DNA of 63,904 nt, filler included, from Collodictyon triciliatum (Eukaryota), in the NCBI GenBank assembly GCA_043381765.1. It is 3 parts of 3 records of this genome, joined end to end, with 100 filler letters (N's around TTAATTAATTAA, not from the genome) between each part and the next. Parts side by side here need not be neighbours in the genome. Positions count along the whole stretch, not along the records: positions 1 to 23,168 come from JBHJMP010001125.1; 2 more parts are not named here. One strand, written 5' to 3'. Every line of letters starts with the position of its first letter. The first letter of the stretch is position 1. This document shows, piece after piece, positions 6,083-60,607 of this stretch. Both the position numbers and the translations under genes were made by a program. The notes beneath the pieces are model-generated. The model had not been told where the DNA came from. It did no database searches and worked only from the letters and a program-made list of their open reading frames with translations.

Positions 6083-6506
6083 ATGATATTTTTATTATTA
6101 TGGTAGATTTAGTACGCATTNNNNNNNNNNNNNNNNNNNNNNNNNNNNNNNNNNNNNNNNNNNNNNNNNNNNNNNNNNNNNNNNNNNNNNNNNNNNNNNN
6201 NNNNNNNNNNNNNNNNNNNNNNNNNNNNNNNNNNNNNNNNNNNNNNNNNNNNNNNNNNNNNNNNNNNNNNNNNNNNNNNNNNNNNNNNNNNNNNNNNNNN
6301 NNNNNNNNNNNNNNNNNNNNNNNNNNNNNNNNNNNNNNNNNNNNNNNNNNNNNNNNNNNNNNNNNNNNNNNNNNNNNNNNNNNNNNNNNNNNNNNNNNNN
6401 NNNNNNNNNNNNNNNNNNNNNNNNNNNNNNNNNNNNNNNNNNNNNNNNNNNNNNNNNNNNNNNNNNNNNNNNNNNNNNNNNNNNNNNNNNNNNNNNNAAA
6501 AAAAAA

Positions 6507-9445: not shown

Positions 9446-9801
9446 ATTTTTGGTATCGCCAATTCCTTCTGATTCTCGTCCCAATCGGGCATGAGTGCTG
9501 CGTTTCTGCCAAGTCTTTTTTTTTCTTTTGCCTCCGAACAAATCTGCATCGCATCCCCACGCACCAAACAAACCCGCAAAACCAAAACCAAAACCAAAAA
9601 GGGCGACTCACTTCTGCGACTGCGGACACGTCCGATTACTTCGCAAAGGGCTACGCCTTCCCACTTGCTTATTTTCCTAGTCTCTCCAACTTCATCACAA
9701 CACAAACCAAAAATAAAAAAAAAATATCAAAGCCAGAGAGAGAGGGAGAGAGAGAGAAGTTGCAATACTGCACAAAACCTCCTGCACCAAACAAGCAGGC
9801 C

Positions 9802-12800
9802 ATGTCCAAGCCGACCGATCGCCGGGACGGCTTCCCGATCGTCGGGCCAGACTCCACCACCGGCCCAGGCCACACAAGCAGCTCCAAGAAGGGCGTCCTC
9901 AACTTCTTTCGGTCCTCATCGTCCTCTTCAAACACGGTCGCAAAGGCCGCCCCACCAAACGTCACGTCGCCAATCATATCCCGGCAAGGCACGCAACCAA
10001 ACGCAACCACAAACGCAAACGCTTCTCGGCAGCAACCGCCCATAGCAACTGCAGCCAACCGCACCCGCACGAGCCCGCTAAGCAGCCGGCCGAAACCGCC
10101 CAACGCAGCCGAAACCGCCTCGGCCTCACTCTCGCAGATAACCCTCGTCGAGGCCGAAGCAACTACGCCACCTACGCCCACATCTGCAGCCGGAGTGGCA
10201 ATCTCATCGCCCCAGCCGGCTTCTCGGGCTTTGCAGCGGGAAGTCTCGGAGCTGCGCAGTCGGCTGCAGGAATCGGAGGTGGATTTGAACGGGCTCGTCT
10301 CTTTGCTTGCGGATTCGCAGCAGCTGCTCGCAAGGCTGCTGGCCGAGGCCGATGCATCTGCCCCGATTCCGTGCAGTGTCTCCCGCATCAAACTGCTCCG
10401 CTCCGATCTGCAGCCCGCCATCGACGATTATGTCGGGACTCTCGAGACTCTATGCGAGGCCTGGATTCGTCGCCCAAATACAAATGCAAACGCAAACGCA
10501 AACGCAAACGCAAACGCGAAAGCATCAAGCCCGGCTTCCTCTGTTCACTCGACACATTCTCAAGGAGGTGAACCCAATCACGTCTCTGGTGCTGCCGACT
10601 ACCGCTTCGTCTATGCCGAGTCGCATCCGCAGAGCCATGCTCACAGCCTTTTGAAGGACACAACCGCCTCGGCCCCGGATGTGGGCTCTGCTCAGGTCCA
10701 TCGTCCTTTTGTCTCACCCGCCAAGTCCGGTCATGTGCGTTGCTTTAAAGATTTATCACTCTATATAATGCTCCATTTTGTTGCATTACCACTTAAAGTT
10801 GCACATCAGTGTTTTTTCTTTAAAAAAAAAAAGAAATGATTTTTTCTATTTTCTATTTTGTTTGAAGTTTTGATGAAGTTATATTGATACTAAAGCCTGG
10901 ATTATTTAATTTGCTTAGTTGTGAATCTAACTTCTTTTTTTTTTTATTCATATTGACATGATTTCTTTGCTTCCTTCTTTCCGTATATCATCATTCGATA
11001 GTCTCGCCGCACAAGCGAATATATTCCTAGCTCCTCCAAATCCAATGAAGCCCCCACAACCAACCGAAGAGCAAGTGAATATGGATTCGGATATGCTCAA
11101 GCCCAAGAGCTATATCAAGAGACATCTCCTTCCACAACAAACCTACATCCCGTCACTTTTGATAATGCTGAGCCGGAAGAAAATATCGCAGAGAACTCTT
11201 TCAAGGAAAACTCAAAGCCTGCAAATCCAAAAGGAATGTCTGGGCCCCTGTCAAAGGGAAAGATAGTCAACGAAAAGGCTCCAGATAAATTTGCAAAGAA
11301 TTTTCTACGTTAGTTAATATATTGTACCCTTGAAATCCTTGTCAAAATCCGCCGACATAATTCTTGACTATTTATCTGAATATATAGACAGCCTCTTATC
11401 AGTTCTTAATTTCCCAATGTCGCATATCTTGAATTATACTAGACATCCTTAATCATCTGCATCTATTTGGTATCTCGAAAAGAATTAATCATACATCGAT
11501 AAACAATAGCACCAAACCTCCTGGATGATTCTAATAGGGCACCCTTACGGCTATCAACGCTGCACTCTGTAATCTCATACTTTTTTCTACTTACTCTAAC
11601 AAAAAAAAAAAACTTTCGTGGTGCAAGAATTAAATAAGACTGTCGATTCCATTTGTTTTCGCTACATGCCTTAAGTAATTGAACTGGTCAATTGTCACAC
11701 TTTCGTTAATATATACCCCCTTTTTTTTTTCTTTTCCTTACTGAGCTCAGCAATCAGTGATGAAAGGTATTCTCTTCAAGAAAAGCGAACTAAAAAAGAA
11801 AACTGGGAAACAGCTTATCGCCTTTATATTTAGATGGAGACTGTACTGCTTCGAATCCGAAAAGGTATAAAAAATGAATCCGTTCTTATAAGAGCAGCCC
11901 ACGTTATCCAAATTCACATGTAATAAGATCGTATAAATTAGAAGCATAATTATTCATTCACTTTAAATTATAGGATACTTCCCCCTCTGAAGAAATCGAC
12001 ATGTGTCAATCTGTAGTCTTTTTGCCAGTCTCGGATGATGATGGGCTTCATTTCTATATCATGTCATCAAAGCTATACATTTTCTGTTGTCCTGATGTGG
12101 CATCTCGTGAGCGCTGGTATAAAAAGCTTGTTGATGTTTCTGATGAAGGAAGGCTACTTGTCGAAACATGCCTGGTAGAAACCGATCTCATTGACCATTA
12201 TTATTTTTAATGCGATTTATTTTGCTTCACACAACGAATTATTGCAAACTAATGATACATTTCCGTCGATTTTATGCAACACCATTAGAAATTTAAATTA
12301 ATTTATCTTAATCTATAAAAACAAATAGGAATTGAAGAATAGCAAACAAATACGCCAAGGAAACCTCGTATTATTCAAAGATAACCTAGAGTCACCGGAA
12401 CTTAGGTGGTGTTTTGCCTCAGAGGCATACTTTGGTTACTTTAAGGTGGTTTTGATAAATTAATAATTTAAAAAAAAAGTAAATCTTCAGCAATATTTTC
12501 TTTGCTAATTGTCTATATGCATATTTGTTCAGACATTTCTTTGAATTGAATATATAAAATAATATTTGTTCAAACATTTATATCTATATTAGTCGTTCTG
12601 TGACTTAACCTTGTTGGAAAAAAAAATAGGATTCGAAACGTTGTCGCATCTTTGACCTTACTCGGGCGCAAATACTAGCTTCACCGAATAAAAGGATTTT
12701 TACCCTTAATTACGATGGCAAGGTGTATCATTGGATGGGCTCCAGTCTTTCTGACATGGAACATTGGCTTAACTGTGTGTCTCGTCTAATTGAGATTGCT

Positions 12801-15800
12801 CGGGTACACCTCCTTGTTTACGCTTGCTTTTTTTTAACGCAATTTTATTTCCTTCCCTCTAGCAGCATTAACATCATCAACTTATAGATTTTATCAATAT
12901 CTCAAAGCATTTCCCAACATCTAGTCATCCATACGCTCTGACGACTACTGGAGAGGATTCCTGGCCAAAAAGAGCAAAAGCGTTTTGGGTAGGACAAAAG
13001 AGCTTTGGTTTGTCATTAAAGAGGGGACTATGACATGCTATCCTGAAATCAAGGCAATTATTAATTTATTATTTTTTTACAAAATCAAAATGTTAATTTC
13101 TTTGTAGTATATATATGTTCTGATAAAGTCTTTATCAAAGACTATCACATTCGTTTGAAGAAATTGTTTCAAGATATCATGCTTGTAAATTTCTTTGTTG
13201 AAATAAAAATGAATTAGTCTGTCAATCCATTGTCGGTCTACGATTTAAGGGGGGCATTTCTGAGGGACTTGGACAAGCTATCCTTTGAACTAATTCTGGT
13301 AGATACGACCAGATTGCAATTGACCACAGGGACGTTTCTTGACTTTGATCTATGTCGCGCTGCATTAAAAAAGAATATATCAGGCAACATGGTGAGTACC
13401 CATAAACATGAGGAGATATAGATATATATAAGAATCGAAGAAAGATAAAATAAAGTATAAAACATATTCATTTGCTTAATATGTGAAAACCTTGAAGCGA
13501 ATTCAAATTTATGCCAATTTATCTAATGCTCACAAGCATTCAAAACTACACTCTAAATGCTTTAATAGGGCAACAAAGATGGAGTTATCAGGTCCGGAAA
13601 TCTTAACATTAGCAGAGCCACACCTGGAAAAACGGCAAAGAAAGAACCAAGGATGTATTGGGTCGTGTTAACCAAAGAAACTTTTTCTTACTTCAAAACT
13701 CAACAAGTACGTGTGTTAAGATAAATAGGCAGAAAAATATATGTCGATATGGTCTATCAAGCAAACAATTTATTTTGGTAAACTCAGGAAGATTCACCCA
13801 CTAAACTACTTTGCGATGCAGGACCCTGTTCCAAAAAAGTCCTTTAATCTTAGTACGGTGCGACTGTTGAAAACGATTTCAACTCCAAACGATTGTTCCT
13901 TCTACATTCAGTTTCCAAAGAAGGTTCACATCCGAAACTCAACATGCATTATGACATTCTGTTTTTATTGCAATTTGAAATTTTCTCGTCTGTCGTCAAT
14001 TGTCCATCGCCACTTTTCCTTTTATTCGATTAGATAATTTCGAATAAAATAAAAACTAGATTGTCAAAGTCGTCGCCTCAAATCACCAGATTGCTATGCA
14101 GTGGAAGGAAGACCTTAAAATCGCCATCAATAGCATCGAACTTGAAGCCAGAATGAAGAAGCGTAACCCTGCCCAGAAGCTTTCGTCTTCATGTAAGAGT
14201 CTTCTTGCAGAATGAAAATGATATGCTATACTTATGCATAGTTTATTTTGGATAATCTTCAAGCTATCAACACTTCTTTACAAAATAACTGTGCAGATTC
14301 TTCATTGAGAATTGGACCGAATTCAATAACAGAATCATACGCCCATGATGCCGATGGGTACCAATCTACAAGAAAAATTAATACTTTTGGGCAGAAGAAT
14401 GAGGACCACGTAAAATTATTATATTGAAAATGATAAGTCAAATATAGACCTGAAGAGATCTCTTGGTTGTGCCACTCTCAATACTTGCACTTTTTTTTTT
14501 AACTCCAGTATAAATATGCCTGACGCAAGCTCCATTATTTTCTGCAGACTTACAATTTCGTCTTTCTTTTTTTCTTATCCTTCTATTTACTCTTCAACCA
14601 GGTTGTTGTCGATTATTCTAAAGATGAATACAGTAAAGTGGACACTACTTCTTCAAGTTTGCGGAAAAAGAAATCCCAAACTAGAAGAAATAGTGTCCCT
14701 CCAAAACTCGTGCATAGCCGATTCAAGTAATTACGTTCTCATTTAAATTACTCCTGAACAAATACAAATATTTGCATTTTGTTTTGTCGATGGTGAGTGA
14801 TGGAGTAACTCAACAACTATTCCGTTATTCGCAGTGCCGCCATGGGTGACATTTTGCTATTTGATAATGGGACATCATTCATCCGTGCCGGGTCCAATAG
14901 AAAGCCATTCCCACAAACCATTCTTCCAACTATTGTCTGTTACCGAAATATTGGAAACCTAAACGAGTTTAGTGTTGGCTTCGATGTGTTCAAGCAGGTC
15001 AGTTTATCGGAATCGCCAATAAAAATAAATAAACTATTAATTGATATGCAACTTACTAAAAAAAAAAAAAAAAGAAAAGAAAAGGCAACGACCCAATGAT
15101 TAAAGAAATTTATTCACTATGAATATAGCAAGAGTCGATTTCATATGAAATAAGGAGACCCTTCCAGTTTGATACACCAATCAACTGGGATAGCACCGCT
15201 GACCTTTACTCGCATTTAATTGAGCATGAGTTTGATGTTGATGTCCCCAACCATCCCGTAATGAATATAGAAACACTCTCCTTTCTTCACATTCTTAATT
15301 CTAATTCATCAACTGGTCAATATATTTTCTTTGGTTTGTTCAGATCGCTTTGACGAAACCAACTGGTTTTCACGAGATGGATGAAGCCAACATGATTGAG
15401 CTTTTCATGGAGGGATTTCAGGCGCCCGCTATTTTTCTGTATGACTCCGGTCCGCTACCTGTTTATGCACTGAACAAGACCTGTGGATTAGTTGTAGATA
15501 TTGGAACACGAACACAGGTTGGGGTTCCTTTCCACAGCAACAAATAAATAATTTTTTTTTATCGTTGCTAACAACAAAGAATAAATTACCGTTTCAATCT
15601 TACAAAGCTGAGAACGATAAAATTTCATACAAAATATATTTTCCAATCATTTTAATTCGTTTGTAGAGTTTATTAAGCAAAAACAAAATGCACAAATGTG
15701 TGGCATGCAGGTCACGCCCGTTTACGAGAAGTTTTCAATCCCCGAGGGAAATCTTCGCTCAAATATAGGCGGTTGGTATGTGGATTCATCTCTCAGTAAG

Positions 15801-16635
15801 CTCATTTCACAAGACCTTGGGACTTACATCCCATCAAAGAAAACACACACTGCCGTATCTACCATGAAAGAAAAGTGAGTCGCGCTCGTCAAACGATGAA
15901 AATTGCCCTCCGATATGTCTCACCTGTTTTCGGTGTATACGCTGTATCTGGGGTCATAAGTGTAGTGCTTTTTTTTAAAAATAAAACAAATTACTTTATA
16001 GACTATGCTATGTCTCTGTCGACTATAAGGAGGAACTCCAGGAATGGAGTACTGGCAAGGCTAGCAAGCGACGTCCATTCACTCTGGACAAACAGTCCAT
16101 CATGATTGGAACACAACGCTTCCGTGCTCCGGAGCTTTTGTTTGACCCAAAACCAGCAGGCTATGATTTGGACGGAATTGCTGACATGATTCGGGCGTCA
16201 ATCAATAGCTGTGACATTCATCTGAGGAAGGATTTGTCCCAGAATATTATCTTATCAGGAGGCACAACCTTGATGCCGGGTGAGACTATGAATGCATTAC
16301 AAGGATTGGAATGGAATGAGACCTATATATACAACTGTCAACTTGCTTTTCTTTGTACGATATTGTACTTTACATTATTATTTATATTATATCGATCTGA
16401 CTTATGGAATGTTCCACCAGGATTTGTGGAGCGCCTTGAACTCGAGCTTGAAAAGGCCACTCCAAAACTACCCCCCGTAAATATAATTGCCAGCGCGCAC
16501 CGCAAGTACCTTCCCTGGTACGGACTTAAATCGATTGTCACCGACCCAGACTTTGCGAGGCATTGGACAACGGCAGAACAATATTGGGAGGAAGGGGCAC
16601 GCCCAATGGAAGAAGACAACGGTGTTTACGAATGA
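9802..16635 (+). CDS. ~1300-aa protein: low-complexity/coiled-coil N-terminus + four PH domains + C-terminal actin-related domain (20 exons)
   Basis: Phase-consistent exon chain: 9802-10695, 11002-11308, 11510-11568, 11751-11864, 11974-12174, 12329-12445, 12630-12803, 12925-13053, 13218-13391, 13569-13706, 13822-13923, 14060-14192, 14297-14409, 14602-14726, 14835-14997, 15129-15257, 15344-15517, 15711-15874, 16002-16279, 16421-16635. PH motifs: MKGILFKK...RERWYKKL; RQGNL...MEHWLNCV; WRGFLAKK...LWFVIK; RSGNL...YWVVLT...AMQWKEDL. Actin motifs: LLFDNGTSFIRAG, GLVVDIG, MKEKLCYVSVDY, IGTQRFRAPELLFDP, DIHLRKDLSQNIILSGGTTLMPGFVERLELEL. Confidence 0.85.
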
Positions 16636-17406
16636 TTTATGATTTAATATATTCCTTTTGATAAGGAACAGAGAGGGAACATATACGTCGAGAGTGGAGG
16701 AACTTCAGTCTGAATTAAATAAAACAACCAAGTACACGATTCTCGGTTAACATGGCACGACTCATTATGCTTCGTCCTTCCTTTTTCCTCCCTGCAATGT
16801 GTCTGGTCTATGCTGTGGCTGGGAAAAAGGAGAGAATCTGTGGCAAATGAAATAGACAAGATGTGACTCTTTCATCCCGCTGCTGTGATGGGTGTACTCA
16901 TGTTCAGGAACAACTCAACTGACGCATCAGTATTTCTTTGTTTGCTTATTCCGTACGCGTTGGGATGCCGGACAAGTATAAGTGGTGATTTAGGATTCGA
17001 TGTATCATTTCCACATTTAGTGAGTCTTATCAACTACATGAAGCAGAAAGTGACCTGTTAGATATGGCCGAGAGGTTGACTGAACACATCCCACCTTTTT
17101 TCACTTGGTATCCGCCATTAAGTCCGATGCGACACAAGTTGAAGCAGCATCCGAAGGTCATCCACATCGCGCAGATGTTTTGTGTGATGCACGATGCAGG
17201 CCTTTTCTTTGGCTGGGACACCTTCGGAGGGATTTATTTACGCGCGTGTGTCTGGTCTTGAGAAGCCAAAACGCAACTGTGCCCAAGACTTCTGCCCATC
17301 TACCCCGCCTACCACTCCGACAAATGATCTCAATTATCTGAAGAATCAACCCCTAATATAAAACCTACTAACGCAGTATATTTTGTTTGCTCAGGTGCTA
17401 GTCAAT

Positions 17407-20149
17407 ATGCAGCGGAATCGTGAGTGGCCAAGCGCTTTTATCTTCGCCTTTCTTGCGACTTTGATGCTCCACCGACTCCCCGCGCAAGGTCAATTTGTGA
17501 AGTACCACGGTTTGCTTGGGACACACGCCGACATGCAAACAGGCTCATACTTTGGAAGCTCCCTGGCCATCTCTCGAAACGGGGCGTTTCTTGTTGTTGG
17601 TTCGTTAAGAGACACTGCGGATGGCGCCTTCGGTGCTGGTTCTGCATCCATCTTTTCTCGCAATGGACCGGAATGGAGTCTTACAACAACTCTGGTATCT
17701 CCGCGCCATAATTACTGGGCTTCTTTCGGTGTTGCAGTGGCCATATCTGAAGACCGGCTGGCTGTTGGCGCACCTTTTGACGATTTATCAGGTGCGGTTT
17801 ATACATATGTGCAACAATCTGGGGGATGGATTTACCATTCCACGTTGTCTAAAAACGAAGGAAAAAACATGGGTGGGTCTTTGGCCATGGATGGAGATCT
17901 TCTGGTTGTTGGAACAGTATTTTCATCAGGTTCTTTGCTGGCATACACGTGGTCAGGAGGTGACTGGTCGTATTACTTGTCTCTCTCAGCAACATCAGTG
18001 GATAGCTGGGCTTGGAATGCTGTGGCCTTAAGTGCCGCTTGGGTTGTGGTTGGGTCGTCGACCGAAAACATGAGGCAGGGAGCTGCATATACATGGCCAA
18101 GGCTTGCGTCTGCCATCGATTCAGGTAGTATTCATAGGATTTCTGCTGATAATCCAGTGGATGACACATACCTCGGTCTCTCTGTGGTATTTATTTCTAG
18201 CAATGTTCTCGCACTTGGAAGCCAAGGAATCTCTTCGGTCTCCATTTTCTCCCATTTCTCCCACACTGGCTGGGTAAGGACAAATGACTTGGTCATCTCG
18301 TCACAAGGCTCCTCGCTAGCCTCAAGTATCTCATTTTCCGGGAGTTACCTGTTGGTGGGAGACCATCAGAATCAGAGAGCTACTGTCTTTTCATTTTCAG
18401 GAACGGAATGGTCGGCCCCGTATGAAATCCCTAAACCTGGATGTGAAAATCCAAGAGGTGATTTTGGAATCAGAGTTCTCATTCATGAGAATGAAATCTT
18501 TGTCAGTGACCCAAGAGAAACCAACAGCTCAGGAGCCATCCCCATGGTTCATATCTTTCACACGACCCAAAGTAATGAATTATTCATAAAAAAAACCATG
18601 TATACGCCCTCTGCAACATTCTTTTGTTCAATATTTTAAAAAAATCGAGGCAGTGTGCTCGACTGCACGGTCGGTATTCTCCATGGAATAAAAAAATAGC
18701 CTTTAGTATGATATCGGCTATTTTCTATAAATTAATTTATTTTACATCCAGACGCAGCCTCTCCCTATGTCACCATGAAGTCGGAGTCGCCCTACAGCAG
18801 GGTCATTCTTCATCACAACATCAATGGAAAATCTAACAATCTTGGATACTCTATATCTGCTCAAGGGAACCTTGTCTCCATATCCCAGCCTGCCTGTTCT
18901 GAGGACAGTAAAATTGACAGAGCATGTGGTAAGGTTTACTTGATGGAGACATCACAAAAAGGATGGCGCCTCGTTCAGTATTTCCAATATCTCGGGCGGA
19001 TTCCGTATTCTCGCTTCGGAAACAACATACTGCTTAAGAACGGATGGTTGCTCATAGCCTCAGAAGCATTGATGGACCCAATCACGGGCATTGAGCAGTC
19101 GGCTGTCTATGGATTTCAGTACTCGCCCAGCCAGGGAAGATTTGTTCGAAGATATTTGGTGTCATCTCCATGGAATGAGCCATACCAATACTTTGGAAAG
19201 AGTTTCGCGATTGACGGAAATATTACCATCGTCTCTGCTCCATATGCCAGCGTATACAATTATAACAGCAAAGGTCGTGTGTATATGTTCCACTATCCAA
19301 AATATATCAATAAAAGCGGCACGCCAAAAGCACTGCAAATTACATCTCCAAACATAGAAGAGGATTTTGGATTCGGACTAAGTGTAGCAGCAAGTAATGG
19401 CATTCTTGTCGTTTCTGCAGACACTTTGCACGGGAGATTATATGTATTTTCGTTCGAAAGCATCAATTCGCACGCGCTGGTGCAAACAATCGTAGCCGAA
19501 GGCATAGAACATCATATACTGGGATATCGCATGGTCTTTGAAGGAAACGATTTGTTTGCAACGAGCTACGGCACACGGAATATGCGCCATGCAGCTGGTG
19601 CAATCTACCACTTCCGATATGAGAAGGATAACGAATTCCATCAGATAAACCGAATGACCGCGATTGGTGAAGACAGCAATCAACACTTTGGAGTATCGCT
19701 AGCTTACAATCAAAAGAGGAATTACCTCGTTGTTGGGTCGTCGCCTGGTTGGACTTGCTCCGGCTGTGTGGATTCAGGTAAAAGGGGCTCAATGAAAAAT
19801 GAGACGATAAATGCATTGATTGTTTCATACTTTTGCCTTTGATGAATATAGATAAATAATCACGGGCAGTCTAAATACTTTAATTAAAATATGCTTTGTT
19901 GTCCCTCTCTTCTTATTTGTATTTACCATGGTGGATTAAGCGGATCATCACGCTCCCACGTCGGTTTACGTGCTTCAAAACACGGGAGGAGGCGTTTGGA
20001 AGCAAACAAAGCACAGTCTCGGAAAGCATGATGGCTCAGACTCGTTTGGATTTAGTGTCGGAAGTAACGATGCTGGAATCTTTGTGGGAGCCCCATTTGA
20101 TGGTTTGTACGCAGATAATAGAGGAGCAGTCTACTTCATTAGCCTCTGA
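17407..20149 (+). CDS. Secreted FG-GAP repeat protein, 14 repeats (two 7-bladed propellers), 799 aa, 3 exons
   Basis: Exons 17407-18571, 18752-19777 and 19941-20149 total 2400 nt in frame. Signal-peptide-like start (MQRNREWPSAFIFAFLATLMLHRLPAQG). Repeats such as SFGVAVAISEDRLAVGAPFDDLSGAVYTY and SFGFSVGSNDAGIFVGAPFDG..RGAVYF. No transmembrane helix. Confidence 0.85.
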
Positions 20150-23168: not shown

Positions 23169-23268
23169 NNNNNNNNNNNNNNNNNNNNNNNNNNNNNNNN
23201 NNNNNNNNNNNNTTAATTAATTAANNNNNNNNNNNNNNNNNNNNNNNNNNNNNNNNNNNNNNNNNNNN
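23169..23268. other. Artificial contig linker N44-TTAATTAATTAA-N44
   Basis: Exactly 100 nt with an all-frame stop cassette. An identical structure occurs at 40763-40862. Confidence 0.9.
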
Positions 23269-23342
23269 GGGAGGGGGGGGGGGGGGGGGGGGGGCCGGAA
23301 TGAAGGAAAAAACAAAAAAGGATCTCGTATGTGCCACAATAC

Positions 23343-25516
23343 CAGAACATCAGCGTCTGAACCCACAGAAATGACTCCTTTTCCAACAAGCTTCATAGCA
23401 GTAGCAGGATTCGATGTGGCCAGCCTCACTGCATCTTGCAAAGGCCAGCGGTGAGCCTGAACTAAGGTTTTTATGGTCTTCAATAGGGTGTCTGGCTTCC
23501 CAACTCCATACCCGATGGTGTTGCCGTTGGAATCAAACTTTGGAAATGATCCATATGCGTCTGAGGAAAGGGTGATTCGCTCGATTGGCAACCCTTCATT
23601 TCTGAATCGCACAAGCGCTTCGATTGTGTCAGCCTCACCCTCTCCGTCAGCCGTCATATCTATAAACCTGGTTTCATAGAATGGGTGGCGATAGTTAGGT
23701 AAAATGTAAGGTGCCATACAGCAATTGAGAAGACTGACAAGTCATATACGTGAAAGGCACTTTATGGATTCAAGTCTTCAAAAAAGAAGAAAAAAAAGGG
23801 GAGCGAATAGAGGCCTCAATATTTTTCTGATGTATACAATTATATGTATTTGCGTTGATTGCCAGACCCGCCACTAGTTAGCCATTCTTTCGATGCTTCA
23901 AGTAGAGCAGGACCGCGGCTGCTTATATGGGTGGGTATAATCTAAGAGTGATATTAAAATGCTTCCAGTGAGACTTTTTTTTTCAAAAGGAAAGTGAAAA
24001 CAGCCTTCGCGGCATTTATGAGTACCTGTGTTATCGGCATATCTCCCTCTCTAACAACCCCCCAAAGTGGGTCCAACATTTTACTGGAACTCCCAACATG
24101 GACATGGACGATGCCTTTCCATAGAGAAATAAAAATCACGATTTTTTTTTTTTGGAGAAACGTATTTACTATACAAACACACTCTTTTAAAACTGCTTCT
24201 TTTCGTCTTCAGGATATACCCAGTTTATATACACTTATTTTAAATTACTTATAGGATGTTTACAATAATGGCACCAATAAAGGCAAAATAGTAACAAGAA
24301 AATAGTGAAAAACCTGCTTTAGCAGAGATAAGGCCCGCAACTCGAGCATCGGAGACTAATTTGTTGAGTTGATCAAGAGTTGGAACACTAGAGCGGGCAT
24401 CTGAGATAGCAACTTTGCTTCCAATTATCTGCGAATTGAGCGGTCAACAAAAAAAAATAATAATAATAAAGAAATGAATTCGAACGAGTGATCAAAATAT
24501 TATGGGGTATGTCCATGAGTTATTTAGAATCTCACTAACCTCTGGAATCCATGTGATGTCATTCTGGACAGAGTCTGTCAGTGTTATTGTAGGAATGCGA
24601 TAGTTCCCTGTCAACATGAAGCCAGTCAGGCCATCTGCAGATAAAGCCCTAGTCTTTGCGAGCAGATTTGTCGGTGCTCGGGTGACACCATCTGTACCAG
24701 CAATAGATACAAATGTTGTAAGTCCACTCAAAATTAATTCTGATAGCAGGGCCTCTGGGGTTCTCGATGCCGGTCCCAATTCACCACCTACAAGATTAAC
24801 AAAATGACGATAAAATACATGTATGATACCCGTTTAAAATTCTTGAAGTATAAATAAAACAACATTATAATTATTGATGATAAATATGACTAAATCAGAT
24901 ATGACTATTGGTTTAATTGAATGACATTTTCGATGAGCATGTAATGATTCTCTTACCACCACCAGCGACGTGGCAGTGCCCATCAACAAAGCCAGGTATG
25001 ATGCTCATGCCACTAACATTAATAACTTGGACTTCTGTAAATCATATGTAAATTATAATTGTATACTTTTTAAAGCCATACTGTTCACTAAGCGAATATG
25101 GTATTGAATGCTGCTTAATATATATAAAGGCTTTCAAAATCAGTAGAGTGTTTATCGTTAATCTATTTGCGTTATTCATAATACCAGAAGCTGATAGCTA
25201 TAGCAAATGCAACAATAGTCAACATATTTGCAGATTTGAAAACTGTGTGCAACAAACCGGAGAGGTTATCATATGCTGTACTTCCTTGTGGAAGGATGGC
25301 AAGTATTTTTGTCCCTCCGATAAGTACGTTTGCAACACCGATTGGTTGCGGTGTGTATACAGATGCACCTTTCAGCAGGACCTGGCGAGTTTAAATCGTA
25401 TTACACAGTGTATTGAAGGAGGTGATGCATCAAAACAGATATGCAAAGAGAGATAAATGTACATATTTTCGAGCCAGACTTATTCTAAAATTATTATTTT
25501 TATGATGATGATGATG

Positions 25517-26440: not shown

Positions 26441-26837
26441 CTACTGAGACGCAGCAACAACACCGATGAGATACTGCGCAAGTAGTCCCCTGGCATCAGC
26501 AGAGTGGCCAACTCCATCAAACTCCTCCGTGGCGTCCTTGCCTAGGACAAGACAGAGCTGCTTAGCCGCGGAATAGACTGGGCATCAAAGACGAAAGGAC
26601 TCTCGCTTCATAAGCAAGACAAGGACTGTGGAAGTGCCTCGAATAGCAATCCTGTCCAACTCGGCAAAGGCAGACAGCCGAGAGGAACTTACCGGCAACG
26701 TCCATGATTGAATCTTCTCCTCCTGGGTGGTCGTCCAGAAAGTCAGTGACGTCGTAGACTTTGCCTTGGTAGACGATCCATGCACTCTGTCGTGTGTTGT
26801 GCGTCCTGATCTCTTCCCAAGTATATTCCTTGGACAT
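26441..26837 (-). CDS. CYB5: Cytochrome b5 (81 aa, 2 exons, no C-terminal membrane anchor)
   Basis: MSKEYTWEEIRTHNTRQSAWIVYQGKVYDVTDFLDDHPGGEDSIMDVAG / KDATEEFDGVGHSADARGLLAQYLIGVVAASQ*. Both heme-ligand motifs (HPGG, GHS) are present. Confidence 0.92.
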
Positions 26838-27062
26838 ATGTCGGGGCTGCGGTGCTGATGTGTGAGAAAGTGAGAAAGTGAGAAAGTGAGAAAGTGAGAA
26901 AGTGAGAGTGTTTGTAGTATGATCATCATTATCACATAGTGATCTGCTGCGCCAAACCATAACCATTTTTTCGCTCGCAACAATCACTACCCATATCCTT
27001 CTCCCAATCTCTTAAACAGCTTCTCGTCACTTTGTAAGAAAGGGGACTAAGAAATCACTATG

Positions 27063-35082: not shown

Positions 35083-35475
35083 TACTTTTTTTCCTTAGTC
35101 GCCTCAAGAGCAACAGGTTGAGAAGAGAAAACAAGCAAATGGAAAAGGGGAAAAAGAAACACTTTTTTCGTCCTACATTCAACATCCTTTCAACGACACT
35201 AAAAAGAGGAATAAAGATATCAAAAANNNNNNNNNNNNNNNNNNNNNNNNNNNNNNNNNNNNNNNNNNNNNNNNNNNNNNNNNNNNNNNNNNNNNNNNNN
35301 NNNNNNNNNNNNNNNNNNNNNNNNNNNNNNNNNNNNNNNNNNNNNNNNNNNNNNNNNNNNNNNNNNNNNNNNNNNNNNNNNNNNNNNNNNNNNNNNNNNN
35401 NNNNNNNNNNNNNNNNNNNNNNNNNNNNNNNNNNNNNNNNNNNNNNNNNNNNNNNNNNNNNNNNNNNNNNNNNNN

Positions 35476-57009: not shown

Positions 57010-57746
57010 GCGCTCTGCATGTGGTTGTGTGTGAGTGACGGCTTGCAAGAGGCTGCAAACCTTTCCATGACTCTTGTGTTTCCCTTTACCTTTATTATTC
57101 TTTCGCTTTTATTTTACTTTCTTTTCTTTTCTTTATGTTTTTCTTTCTCTTTTATGTCTTTTCTTTTCCTCCTAGACTTTTTTTTGTTTTTTGTTTGTTT
57201 GTTTTTTTTTGACTTTTTTTTGATTTTTTTTGACTTTTTTTGATTTTTTGTGTTGATTTAATCTTCTGTGTGGGCTGAATCTGGTCCACTTTTGGTTACA
57301 GATTGAATTTCCAGATGAAGGTTGAGTTATTCATACCATATTAGATAATAAGTCGACCTATATTTTCCATATTTAATTTAAAGACATACAAACCCACATT
57401 CGCATTAAAATTGCCTTCCATGTCGACACCAATTTTTGTGGTTACTCTTCATTTCTTTTCACAATCATTAATCATTCGATGAATCACAATCGCAAGAAAA
57501 GCCGCAAAGTCCTTCGGTTGTGGCCAAACCTCCAAGCAACAAAAGCTGCGTCCAGCGAAACACAGCAACGAACTGTCTGATTCATAGCACACAACATCTC
57601 GACAGACTTACAGTACTAGGAAGCAAAAAAATAACCAAAGTTTGCACTGTTGTTCAGAAGGGATTCGCTACTTAGTCTAAAAAAAAAAACTTTCAAAAAC
57701 CCGAGAAACCCACCCTGAAAAACTGTACTTTTGCGCAGATTCCACG
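57010..57746. promoter_or_regulatory. Putative bidirectional promoter region between divergent URB1 and NOP58
   Basis: 737 nt between the two ATGs (57009 minus strand, 57747 plus strand). Inferred from orientation only. Confidence 0.4.
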
Positions 57747-60607
57747 ATGCTCGTCCTGTTTGAAACACCCGCCGGATTTGCTCTCTTCAAACTCCTCGAC
57801 GAGGGGAAGATCGACTCTGAGAACCTATGGAAGGATTTCAGCACGCCCGAAGCCGCACAGAAAGTGTACGTCCGTCCTGCGAAATCACCCTTTGCCGCAG
57901 CCCTCACCTTCCTCCCTTCCTTCCTTCCTTCCTTCCTTCCTTCCTTCCTTCCTTCCTTCCTTCCTTCCTTCCTTCCTTCCTTCCTTCCTTCCTTCCTTCC
58001 TTCCTTCCTTCCTCAGTCCAAGCTGAAACCTCTTTCGCGAGCGTTCTTTGTCGCAGTCTGCAGCTACCCAGCCATTTATTTTTTTCTGCTCTCAATCACA
58101 CGTACTCAGCCCTAACTCAAAGATGTCTTGTTTAAAGGGTTCACTTTCGTGGTGTCACTAACTCTCAACCAAACACACTTAGGGTGAAGCTGAAAGCGTT
58201 CCATAAGTTCCAGGACACCCTGGAAGCCCTGGAGGCGGCAACGGCCTTGATTGATGGCAAGATGGACTCCAGTCTCAAGAAGTTCCTCAAGAAGCAAATC
58301 GCAGGCAAAGCCGGTTCAGCGGCTGCCGAGAAACTTGCGGTCTGCGACTCGAAACTTGCCACTGTCATCAAGGACAGCCTCAATATCCCCTGCATTTTCG
58401 ACGATCGCGTGTTCCAGTTGATGCGTGGTATTCGTGAGCAGATTGACAGTCTTGTTGGTGCGGACCAGGCTGACATGAAAGCCATGGTTCTCGGTCTCTC
58501 GCATTCACTCTCTCGCTATAAGCTCAAGTTCAGCCCTGACAAGGTCGACACAATGATCATCCAAGCCATCGGTAGGAACCATTTTATCATGAATAGCATC
58601 TGTCTTCCCTTCTTTATTTCTTTCCTTTTATTTGCTGCTGGTTGACATATATCACCTTGGTTATTTCTCTGTTCTCTTACCTTAGCCTTTTTCTTTCTTT
58701 AACTTTTGTAAACATACAGGCCTCTTGGATGACCTTGACAAGGAACTTAACACGTATGCTATGAGAGTGCGCGAATGGTACGGTTGGCATTTTCCTGAGA
58801 TGGGCAAAATCATCGTCGATAATGTGGCTTACGCTAAAGTTGTGAAGAAGATGGGTCAGTTTTACACAAATACGTCGTCATTCTATTCTGTTATTCAGTT
58901 ATCAAGCTTGTGAACCGTAATGACTACACGACTCTCAAGGTGATTGTTACCCGCAATAGGATTTCGCTCCAATGCCCTGAAGACTGAGTTTGGTGATATC
59001 CTCGCTGACGAAATCGAGCAAGAGTTGAAGGAAACTGCCCAGATCTCCATGGGAACTGAGGTTTTCTAGTCATCAAGCGACATAGATATTTTACAAATTA
59101 TCCTAGAGCACCATTGTCAGAGTCTCTCCCTTTCTTTTAACAATAAACTGATAATAGATCAGCGAGCAAGACATTGAAAACATCACCTATCTCTGCGACC
59201 AAGTCATCTCCCTTACTGAGTATCGCGTCCAGCTGTATGACTACCTGAAGAACCGTATGCAAGCAATCGCACCGAATCTTAGCTTCTTGCTCGGCGAAAT
59301 GGTTGGTGCCCGCCTCATTTCCCACGCTGGAAGCCTGTTGAATCTTGCCAAACACCCTGCCTCTACAGTCCAGATTCTGGGAGCCGAAAAAGTATGTCGG
59401 TTCCTCAATTTATCTATTCTTAAGAATATTAAGATTTATATTGTTCATGCAGTCTATCCCGGAATAATAATGTACTTACTTTATCCCCTTCATCTCAGGC
59501 TCTTTTCCGCGCTTTGAAGACTAAGCACGACACTCCTAAGTACGGTCTAATTTACCATGCCTCTCTGATAGGCCAAGCGCCCGCCAAACACAAAGGAAAG
59601 GTGTGTCTTGAGTCCTTTTCTTTTTCTTTAGATTTACTGCCATTTTGATGGAAAACGAATGTTATCATCAGTGACACCCCACACGATATTGACCCGTGCG
59701 ATTCCCTATCGCAGATTTCTCGCGTCCTTGCAGCAAAAGCAGCCCTCTCTATCCGCGTCGATGCTCTTGGCGAAAAGGATATTCCCAATATCGCAGTTCA
59801 GCAACGTGCTAAGGTGGAAGCCAGGTTTGCTGTTCTGCCAGTTATCTTACGAAAACTATTATGCATTCCCCAGGTCAAACAATCGTGAATTACCTGAATG
59901 CAAACTTGTCACCCACCATAACGCAATCAAACTCTTACAGAATCAAGCTCCTTGACCAGACTGGTATTCGCCCCGGCGGTGGCATGAAGTCCAAGAGCAA
60001 ACCGAGGTCCTTTGAAACCCAAGGGTAAGAGCCAATAACCGACAACTTGCATGAATCATGATTTTTCTATGTATAACATAAATCAGCATCGGTTTGGTCA
60101 CCTCCTGGAATTCCTCACCCACCCTCATAGTGGGTCGAGTGCAAAGCCATACTCCTCCAAGTCTGACTCGATGGTTACATTCAAAAAATCGTCCGAGACG
60201 TTGACAACTACACTAGGTATGCATATGTTAAGAAAGCTCACGCAGATAATAAACTTTTTCGCTCTCTTGTCTTCTCCATTTCGCGGAAGCAACCGATTTG
60301 AATCCTGACTCTGTCCACAGACGAGAAGCCGAAGGCCTCAGAGGAGAAAAAGCGCAAGATCGAAGAGACTGTCGAAGAGCCCGCCCCTGTGCCCCAGGAG
60401 AAAAAGAAGAAAGCCAAAAAGCAAGAGGCTGAGGCACCCGCGGCTCAGGAAGAAGCAGAGAAGCCAAAGAAGAAAAAGAAGGTCAAGGCAGAAGAAGCAG
60501 CACCCGAACCCGAACCTGAGCCCGTTGCAGTCGAGGAGCCCGCATCTGCGTCTGCTGGTGGAGAGGAAAAGAAAAAGAAGAAAAAGAAGAAGGCAGAGTC
60601 AGCATAA
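57747..60607 (+). CDS. NOP58: Box C/D snoRNP core protein NOP58
   Basis: [136 protein letters not shown]-rich tail ending KKKKAESA*. Confidence 0.96.
57914..58013. repeat. (TTCC)n microsatellite in NOP58 intron 1
   Basis: Directly visible. Confidence 0.9.

Follow-up and report, generated by a model that had tools for sequence, protein, structure and literature searches.

A PH-actin fusion gene of Collodictyon triciliatum and its relatives in Diphylleia and Rigifila

The stretch of DNA analysed here (63,904 nucleotides with filler, from here: the window) comes from Collodictyon triciliatum (GenBank assembly GCA_043381765.1) and consists of parts of three records of this genome, joined end to end. 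Between positions 9802 and 16635 of its plus strand lies a gene of 20 exons and 19 introns, from here called the PH-actin gene, with a coding sequence of 3903 nt and a product of 1300 amino acids that contains 0 internal stops. The PH array and the actin-fold domain of this product are almost certainly encoded by one gene. The PH-actin family to which it belongs exists as a conserved group, of which the searchable literature yielded no description. The initial annotation of the locus had left open whether such an architecture was already well characterised; no paper describing a PH-actin fusion or actin-related proteins (ARPs) of CRuMs was found in a search that covered neither subscription journals nor supplementary files.

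Structure of the PH-actin gene

The gene model is based on a three-frame translation of positions 9700–16800, from which the exons were assembled by hand. Exon 3 and the acceptor site at 11751 (versus 11758) were placed via a 23-residue gap in the alignment to an ortholog, P0001. The introns are of the GT-AG type in 18 of 19 instances; the remaining one is a GC-AG intron (13054–13217, AAG/gcaatt...ag) that splits the two exons of PH3, and its splicing was seen in a contig of the public sequencing run X1. Exons have a GC content of 47.6%, versus 29.6% for the introns. Three junctions link the PH array to the actin-fold domain, namely 14192/14297 in phase 1, 14409/14602 in phase 0 and 14726/14835 in phase 2. 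The initial annotation had described 19 introns joining in phase and a protein of about 1300 amino acids, and the rebuilt model arrived at 19 introns and 1300 residues. The three junctions from PH4 to the actin domain were reproduced exactly, with their phases, and both peptides quoted at that time, ..HSRFNAAMGDILLFDNGT.. and LQREVSELRSRLQESEVDL, are found in the rebuilt protein.

Exon 1 (9802–10695, amino acids 1–298) starts with the ATG at 9802 and encodes a low-complexity region rich in Ser, Pro, Thr and Asn together with a helical segment. It is followed by the disordered exon 2 (11002–11308, amino acids 299–400, ending in phase 1), which carries two RR(T/A)SEY motifs, and by the short exon 3 (11510–11568, 59 nt), placed by the P0001 alignment. 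The array begins with PH1, encoded by exons 4 (11751–11864) and 5 (11974–12174), and continues with PH2 on exons 6 (12329–12445) and 7 (12630–12803), PH3 on exons 8 (12925–13053) and 9 (13218–13391), and PH4 on exons 10 (13569–13706), 11 (13822–13923) and 12 (14060–14192, ending in phase 1). The linker is encoded by exon 13 (14297–14409, YSSLRIGPNS..STRKINT..), which is predicted to be disordered and whose acceptor at 14297 is confirmed by an X1 contig, and by exon 14 (14602–14726, ending in phase 2), which contains the motif RRNSVPP at 14683–14703. The actin-fold domain (amino acids ~931–1300) occupies positions 14835–16635 with exons 15 (14835–14997), 16 (15129–15257), 17 (15344–15517), 18 (15711–15874), 19 (16002–16279) and 20 (16421–16635), the stop codon TGA included.

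An environmental open reading frame (ORF), P0002, is named 'actin-related protein' and is near-identical to the window protein, but reads through the in-frame intron 16280–16420 on its 919-nt contig. Because only 2 residues near the C-terminus differ, P0002 stems from a close strain or allele. It is also a warning for annotation, as this 177-amino-acid fragment reading through an intron was all that automated callers had for this type of locus.

Transcript and ortholog evidence

Public sequencing runs matching the window were X1 (21% of sampled words, library type guessed as RNA) and X2 (a freshwater metatranscriptome, 5%), and contigs of both were compared with positions 9500–17000. The gene is expressed. 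Spliced public contigs confirmed 10 of its 19 junctions: 11308/11510 was found in an X2 contig, while X1 contigs contained 12803/12925, 13053/13218, 13706/13822, 13923/14060 and 14192/14297 in the PH array and at its exit as well as 14997/15129, 15257/15344, 15517/15711 and 15874/16002 in the actin-fold domain. The exon 1 region was covered from 10071 to 10753 by contigs of X1 and X2 together. The junction 14192/14297 leads from PH4 into the linker; since it was seen spliced, a PH-only gene that retains this intron and ends at the in-frame stop a few codons past exon 12 is ruled out. Coverage by X2 to X4 was almost nil outside of an (AAACGC)n repeat in exon 1, and the gaps of X1 and of X2 to X4 carry no weight as evidence of absence.

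Further support for the linker came from a relative. An 887-nt contig of run X3 matches positions 14683–14708 and 14963–14997 with 146 letters in between, which is the spliced distance (18 + 128) and not the genomic distance of 254 nt, and thus supports junction 14726/14835. The loose ends of this contig read as peptides of P0001.

P0001 itself (EukProt, labelled Diphylleia rotans) was found via exon 19; it is a Trinity ORF of 1370 amino acids that is annotated as complete and has both PF00022 and PF00169 on record. The window model aligned with it from end to end, both linker exons included, with 48.6% identity over 1353 columns and 1230 bits. Such an alignment of a spliced model with an independent transcript ORF places the gene model far beyond chance. 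Identity differed little between the modules, with 53–66% in PH1 to PH4 (53, 66, 64 and 66%, respectively), 58% in the actin domain, 49% in the helical segment and 44% in the linker, versus 31% in the disordered parts. At the site of the window ATG 14842, P0001 has Thr instead of Met and reads ..ISADTGHVLVIDNG.., so that an independent start at this position is not a conserved feature.

The single gene claimed by the initial annotation hence holds up, given 10 of 19 junctions in RNA contigs, an alignment with P0001 that runs through the linker, and a fusion that is conserved and transcribed in relatives. The same applies to the order of the domains, which runs from the Ser/Pro-rich part through a helical segment (a predicted coiled coil in the initial annotation), the PH array and a linker to the actin fold.

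The actin-fold domain

The C-terminal domain belongs to the actin family (PF00022, actin/HSP70/sugar-kinase fold). Five of its six exons matched PF00022 in the order of the profile (positions 7–48, 99–152, 156–196, 241–339 and 341–404), whereas exon 16 alone gave no PF00022 match; two single exons scored 67.8 and 31.5 bits at a gathering cutoff of 27. The actin domain of P0001 reached 233 bits (E 5.5e-69) and covered profile positions 5–403 of 410. Identity to actin is about 30% (28–32% in the listed matches). In a search of PDB sequences, the best 60 of 159 matches were all actins (185–214 bits) and no ARP was among these 60. That actins outrank ARPs there hints at an orphan lineage, although such a ranking is not a class test.

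Residues were mapped onto the 375-amino-acid actin P0004. The phosphate-1 loop reads FDNGTSF (14863–14880), and the phosphate-2 loop DIGTRTQ (15497–15517), with Arg (15509–15511) in the place of actin G158. Kept with respect to actin are D11, N12, G13, G156, K213/E214 (within KEKLCYV), RFRAPE, G301-G302-T303, R335/K336/Y337 and W340, as are Y143, A144 and T148 of the barbed-end cleft together with the ERFRAPE block. Of these, N12, G13, G156, E214, G301-G302 and K336 belong to the core and the adenosine pocket. Other positions are changed: G15 is replaced by S, Q137 by S (Pro in most relatives), D157 by T and G158 by Arg, and H161 is deleted. The D-loop is about 6 residues shorter than that of actin, the hydrophobic plug residues F266/L267 are replaced by P/A, the cleft residues L349/T351/M355 by D/D/H, and the C-terminal HRKCF is absent. 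The Arg in the place of G158 is shared by the window protein and 5 of 5 rows of alignment A1, while P0063 has Lys and P0075 Ser at this position. Hence, the hallmarks of a conventional actin (high identity, a full D-loop, Q137, H161, DSGDGVTH and HRKCF) are lacking.

These residues suggest that the nucleotide pocket is retained whereas the hydrolysis machinery and both filament faces appear degraded, as would be expected of a static ARP-like module. The short D-loop, the altered plug and cleft, and the loss of Q137 and H161 argue against actin-like polymerisation or ATP turnover. Judged from these residues, the domain probably does not polymerise, and its binding of nucleotide is probably accompanied by poor hydrolysis.

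PH array, N-terminal region and linker

Single PH exons of the window matched PF00169 with 15.3 bits each, below the cutoff of 25.1; these scores belong to split single exons and not to the spliced protein. Exon 5 of PH1 matched profile positions 69–103 and exon 8 of PH3 positions 4–35. For whole-protein analyses the ortholog P0001 was used in place of the window protein. It scored 71.8 bits against PF00169 in three stretches, the best of them at residues 814–897 (PH4), and a further family member, P0013, scored 131 bits in four stretches.

A structure was predicted with AlphaFold2 from residues 492–1370 of P0001 (879 residues) and five relatives. The model contains four units of seven strands and a long helix each, at positions 2–107 (PH1), 113–206 (PH2), 211–308 and 309–422, with values of the predicted local distance difference test (pLDDT) mostly between 70 and 88. 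The presence of four PH domains in the array is supported by this model. The linker (419–510) is predicted to be disordered (pLDDT ~28, below 50) and is followed by the actin domain (511–879), for which the model predicts an actin-like three-dimensional fold: VIA-align superposed model residues 511–873 on actin residues 5–371 with Z 22.4 and a root-mean-square deviation of 2.1 Å over 172 aligned residues. The Foldseek list obtained with this model was filled by actin-domain matches, so that PH matches could not surface.

The loops between strands beta1 and beta2 of PH1 and PH3 are very basic, with the sequence KKSELKKKTGK in PH1. Phosphoinositide-binding PH domains are defined by a K-Xn-(K/R)-X-R motif across this loop. 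Binding of lipids by the array is plausible from the composition of these loops.

The helical segment within exon 1 (10222–10506, amino acids 141–235) contains LQREVSELRSRLQESEVDL and is better conserved in P0001 than the disordered parts that flank it (49 versus 31%). The Pfam scan of the N-terminal exons of the window gave no match. A prediction of a two-copy complex of this segment (10204–10521) yielded scores of 0.20 and 0.22 at a mark of 0.32, which speaks neither for nor against dimerisation. Coiled-coil-like N-terminal regions recur within the PH-actin family. The (AAACGC)n repeat at ~10476–10517 encodes a run of Asn-Ala, (NA)n. One X2 contig lacks 6 nt of this repeat at 10486. Many unrelated contigs of all four runs stack on the repeat and match nothing beyond it, both of their ends being loose.

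Motifs of the type RR(T/S/A)SE(Y/F) precede PH1 twice in the window protein (SRRTSEY and NRRASEY, both in exon 2) and three times in P0001. The disordered linker has a length of about 85 residues and shares the blocks SYSSLRI.P.S, S.RKINT and RRNSVPPKL.H.R with P0001. RRNSVPP is located about 15 residues N-terminal of the actin domain. All 6 rows of alignment A2 share the second Arg of this motif, and an RRxS-type linker motif occurs in the window protein and in 4 of 5 rows of alignment A1. By their sequence, the RRxS-type motifs would fit sites of basophilic kinases.

Family distribution and phylogeny

Residues 492–1370 of P0001 were used as HMMER query against 1.84 billion representative sequences, yielding 10,421 matches at E<=0.001, of which the best 150 were examined. 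The Pfam scan covered 95 of them, among these all that have a length of at least 450 amino acids, the remaining 55 all having 442 amino acids or fewer. PF00169 and PF00022 occurred together in seven of the 95 scanned proteins, and six of these came from the EukProt sets of Diphylleia rotans and Rigifila ramosa, which are both members of CRuMs. Diphylleia rotans is represented by P0001, P0006 (1390 amino acids, 36% identity, covering 3–872 of the query) and P0007 (1141 amino acids, 28%, covering 19–869), and Rigifila ramosa by P0013, P0020 and P0075 (790 amino acids), with P0161 (1754 amino acids) and P0162 (1284 amino acids) as longer isoforms of P0013 and P0020. The seventh protein, P0063, has 604 amino acids and is cut at its N-terminus. 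Because six proteins with both domains occur in the transcriptomes of two species, they speak for a conserved family with several paralogs and not for a mis-joined gene pair. Judged from these sequences, the PH-actin family has three or more paralogs in Diphylleia, and likewise in Rigifila. The window protein shares the hallmarks of this family, i.e. the order of the PH array, the RRxS linker and the Arg at actin position 158.

Three other searches added little. With residues 995–1370 of P0001 at near lengths, only P0001 itself was recovered among 4551 candidates. With A1 as query, 8000 candidates yielded P0001 and, as the sole other match, a PH-only protein of Rhodotorula; this search was uninformative as its words came from the first 500, low-complexity residues. 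For exon 19, none of 514 pattern matches in metagenome contigs was confirmed by tblastn.

A tree of 43 actin domains was calculated with IQ-TREE (quick); named ARPs were not part of the set. The window protein and P0001 grouped with a support of 100, P0006 and P0007 joined them at 99, and P0161 and P0162 at 86. P0075 and P0063 formed a pair (95), and a further clade (99) consisted of P0014 from Mastigamoeba balamuthi, P0092, P0046 and P0165. These three groups were set apart from the other 31 actin-like rows (94). This tree would allow for a PH fusion that arose only once.

The other long matches were set aside as different fusions or likely model artefacts: tandem actins, RVT, CRAL_TRIO, NACHT or kinase domains joined to actin, and actins with unannotated N-terminal extensions. 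Among them, P0059 (Branchiostoma), P0068, P0080 and P0108 combine an N-terminal, lipid-binding CRAL/TRIO domain with a near-conventional C-terminal actin in 1500–1800 amino acids. They are a further natural case of actin joined to a lipid-binding domain, and the combination was also present in 3 of the 24 proteins of A3. P0118, an 814-amino-acid protein from an ENA metagenome, contains a protein kinase, a coiled coil and actin. P0103 of Moniliophthora roreri (1038 amino acids) joins NACHT/NPHP3_N to actin, possibly by an artefact of the gene model, and P0050 of Stygamoeba regulata is a filactin-like combination of Ist1 and actin.

Other features of the window

Just downstream of the PH-actin gene, two long open frames at 17362–19839 (plus strand) contain FG-GAP_2 repeats (PF14312, E 7e-20 and 5e-12). 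By this match they may belong to a single gene, whose product would be a beta-propeller or integrin-alpha-like protein. Ordinary eukaryotic coding sequences are present in the window as well. Exons of a Nop5/Nop58-type small nucleolar ribonucleoprotein (domains NOP5NT and Nop) are found at 57681–59514 (plus strand), a cytochrome b5 domain exon at 26565–27011 (minus strand) and an amidohydrolase exon at 23220–23741 (minus strand). Open frames at 37.2–39.4 kb appear thiolase-like by eye only. The intergenic parts contain runs of N, read as assembly gaps, as well as many long tracts of microsatellite or homopolymer type, at ~2150–2660, 6120–6500, 23170–23216, 27100 and 35230–35470.

Discussion

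We consider it fairly probable, from sequence, that the PH-actin protein does not form filaments but is an actin-related scaffold or anchor with little ATPase activity, tethered to the cortex or to a membrane. In such a scaffold, the actin-fold domain would hold its nucleotide statically and would be a docking module for actin or for an actin-binding partner. The PH array, with its basic PH1 and PH3 loops, would bring this module to the cell cortex or to acidic membranes. Oligomerisation would be the task of the N-terminal helical segment, and regulation that of the conserved RRxS motifs of the basophilic-kinase type. With regard to function, the initial annotation was right about a protein fusing PH domains to actin, while the phosphoinositide-localised nucleator, cap or decoy it had suggested, possibly dimerised via the coiled coil, gains no support from the altered filament contacts and the lack of a strict phosphoinositide motif.

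Several observations weigh against our interpretation at its different levels. The functional claims are drawn wholly from sequence. By inspection, the strict K-Xn-(K/R)-X-R motif is absent from all four PH domains, each of which lacks a basic pair directly ahead of beta2. Besides, the ligands of many PH domains are proteins and not lipids. The AlphaFold2 model is of moderate quality only (mean pLDDT 66.5, predicted template modelling score 0.36). In the Foldseek search with all 879 residues it retrieved actins at E 2.5e-20 (~1e-20) with template modelling scores of only 0.41–0.44, which is too low for statements on geometry at the level of residues. The restriction to CRuMs is a statement about the best 150 matches only, and in ESM Atlas clusters near P0001 and P0063 all members have Actin (100%) and 35–76% have PH. 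The representatives of these clusters have 900–1264 amino acids, and the members with a record, which are a minority, carry arthropod or nematode labels; no Actin+PH protein of arthropod or nematode type was among the 95 scanned best HMMER matches. These clusters may be an independent or related animal fusion, or mislabelled protist sequences. As for the transcript, that X1 is an RNA library is a guess, although its contigs are spliced, and no contig of the species itself spans 14409/14602 or 14726/14835, due to a gap in X1 at ~14355–14892. This gap leaves room for a shorter, actin-only isoform from ATG 14842. Of the linking junctions, 14192/14297 was seen spliced, while 14726/14835, for which the initial annotation had called for an RNA check, is backed by P0001 and the X3 spacing and not by RNA of the species itself.

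The two linking junctions (of three) that own-species RNA does not reach would also suit two adjacent genes joined only in silico, one for a protein with four PH domains and one for a stand-alone ARP from ATG 14842, all the more as MGDILLFDNGT resembles a natural ARP N-terminus. Two such genes are nevertheless very improbable: RNA contigs are spliced at 14192/14297, the linker exons are conserved and in frame with P0001, which has no Met at the 14842 site, the X3 contig spans the last linking junction with spliced spacing, and PH and actin are present in one ORF in six transcript-derived ORFs of two species, plus P0063. If one gene is accepted, its product could still be a membrane-recruited nucleator, seed or cap, possibly a coiled-coil dimer, in which the PH array would bind phosphoinositides and the actin fold would mimic a subunit at the filament end. 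The actin-fold domain is indeed closer to conventional actin than to any structure-solved ARP, all of the best 60 PDB matches being actins, and it has kept Y143, A144, T148 and ERFRAPE. Moreover, coiled-coil-like N-terminal regions recur in the family, and P0014, in the sister clade with the G-N-R phosphate-2 loop, has a proline-rich N-terminal region as is typical of actin-assembly factors. We regard such a nucleator as unlikely in view of the D-loop that is ~6 residues shorter, the replaced plug residues F266 and L267, the exchange of L349, T351 and M355 for D, D and H, and the loss of the C-terminal HRKCF. With D-loop, plug, cleft and C-terminus changed, both filament-contact faces have diverged. 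From the sequence, a tethered scaffold with an actin fold that does not polymerise is more likely than a nucleator.

A third explanation dispenses with the membrane: the PH array would bind proteins, such as small GTPases or phosphopeptides, and the actin fold would be a nucleotide-dependent switch or heterodimer partner with a signalling or nuclear role. The want of a strict phosphoinositide motif in all four PH domains is in line with this, as are the conserved RRxS-type motifs, which suggest control by kinases, and the degenerate phosphate-2 loop DIGTRTQ. Nuclear ARPs have non-canonical phosphate-2 loops, to which DIGTRTQ may be likened, and are such partners in remodelling complexes. However, neither a chromatin domain or HSA-type partner nor a signal for nuclear localisation was noticed in P0001, in which Pfam found PH and Actin only, and the highly basic PH1 and PH3 loops favour contact with acidic lipids; we therefore think a protein-binding role away from membranes improbable.

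Like the PH-actin domain, ARP1 to ARP10 have diverged within the actin family; their nucleotide loops are altered, and their surfaces for polymerisation have been lost. Canonical ARPs are not known to contain PH domains. Conventional actin has the same fold and motif order as the PH-actin domain, with DNG, G156, KEKLCYV, RFRAPE, SGGTT and RKY-W kept, but in the PH-actin protein ~930 residues precede the actin domain. Filactin of Dictyostelium discoideum is likewise a natural product of one gene, in which a long N-terminal extension, with domains of the membrane-trafficking type, is joined to a C-terminal actin domain. The latter is reported to resemble conventional actin closely (PMC2441452), in contrast to the ~30% identity and the lost D-loop length, Q137 and H161 of the PH-actin domain. 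Four PH domains stand here in place of the Ist1-like region of filactin, Pfam domains in P0001 being PH and Actin only, and the two are placed apart in the tree. The nearest actin-domain relatives without PH are P0014 (882 amino acids) and the metagenome proteins P0046 and P0092, which have long N-terminal extensions and whose clade (99) attaches next to the PH-actin clades. By hhalign, the PH-actin family matched P0014 and P0046 with a probability of 100 and 32–33% identity over the actin domain only. P0014, P0046 and P0092 share the unusual G-N-R phosphate-2 loop with its Arg, while their N-terminal regions neither align to the PH array nor have a Pfam PH match; the extension of P0014 is proline-rich, with PPxxP-type repeats. 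Judging by this loop, the G-N-R-loop proteins may together define an orphan actin-related lineage across CRuMs and Archamoebae.

A bolder proposal, doubtful as we judge it, is that a CRuMs-specific family with at least three paralogs per species seeds, caps or anchors actin at phosphoinositide-marked membranes, e.g. at the phagocytic groove, under kinase control via the RRxS motifs. If true, membrane-coupled actin assembly would here need neither an Arp2/3 adaptor nor a separate nucleation-promoting factor.

Natural fusions of an actin fold with a targeting domain are rare and few have been studied, with filactin as the main example. Here, an actin-fold module is found in cis with four PH domains, and in several paralogs, in a deep-branching supergroup for which there are almost no cell-biological data. 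If the PH array targets membranes, this would be a simple case of an actin-like module that is positioned without adaptor complexes. The family would also add an orphan lineage to the actin family tree, one that has the phosphate-2 loop Arg as its mark and to which an Archamoeba protein belongs as well.

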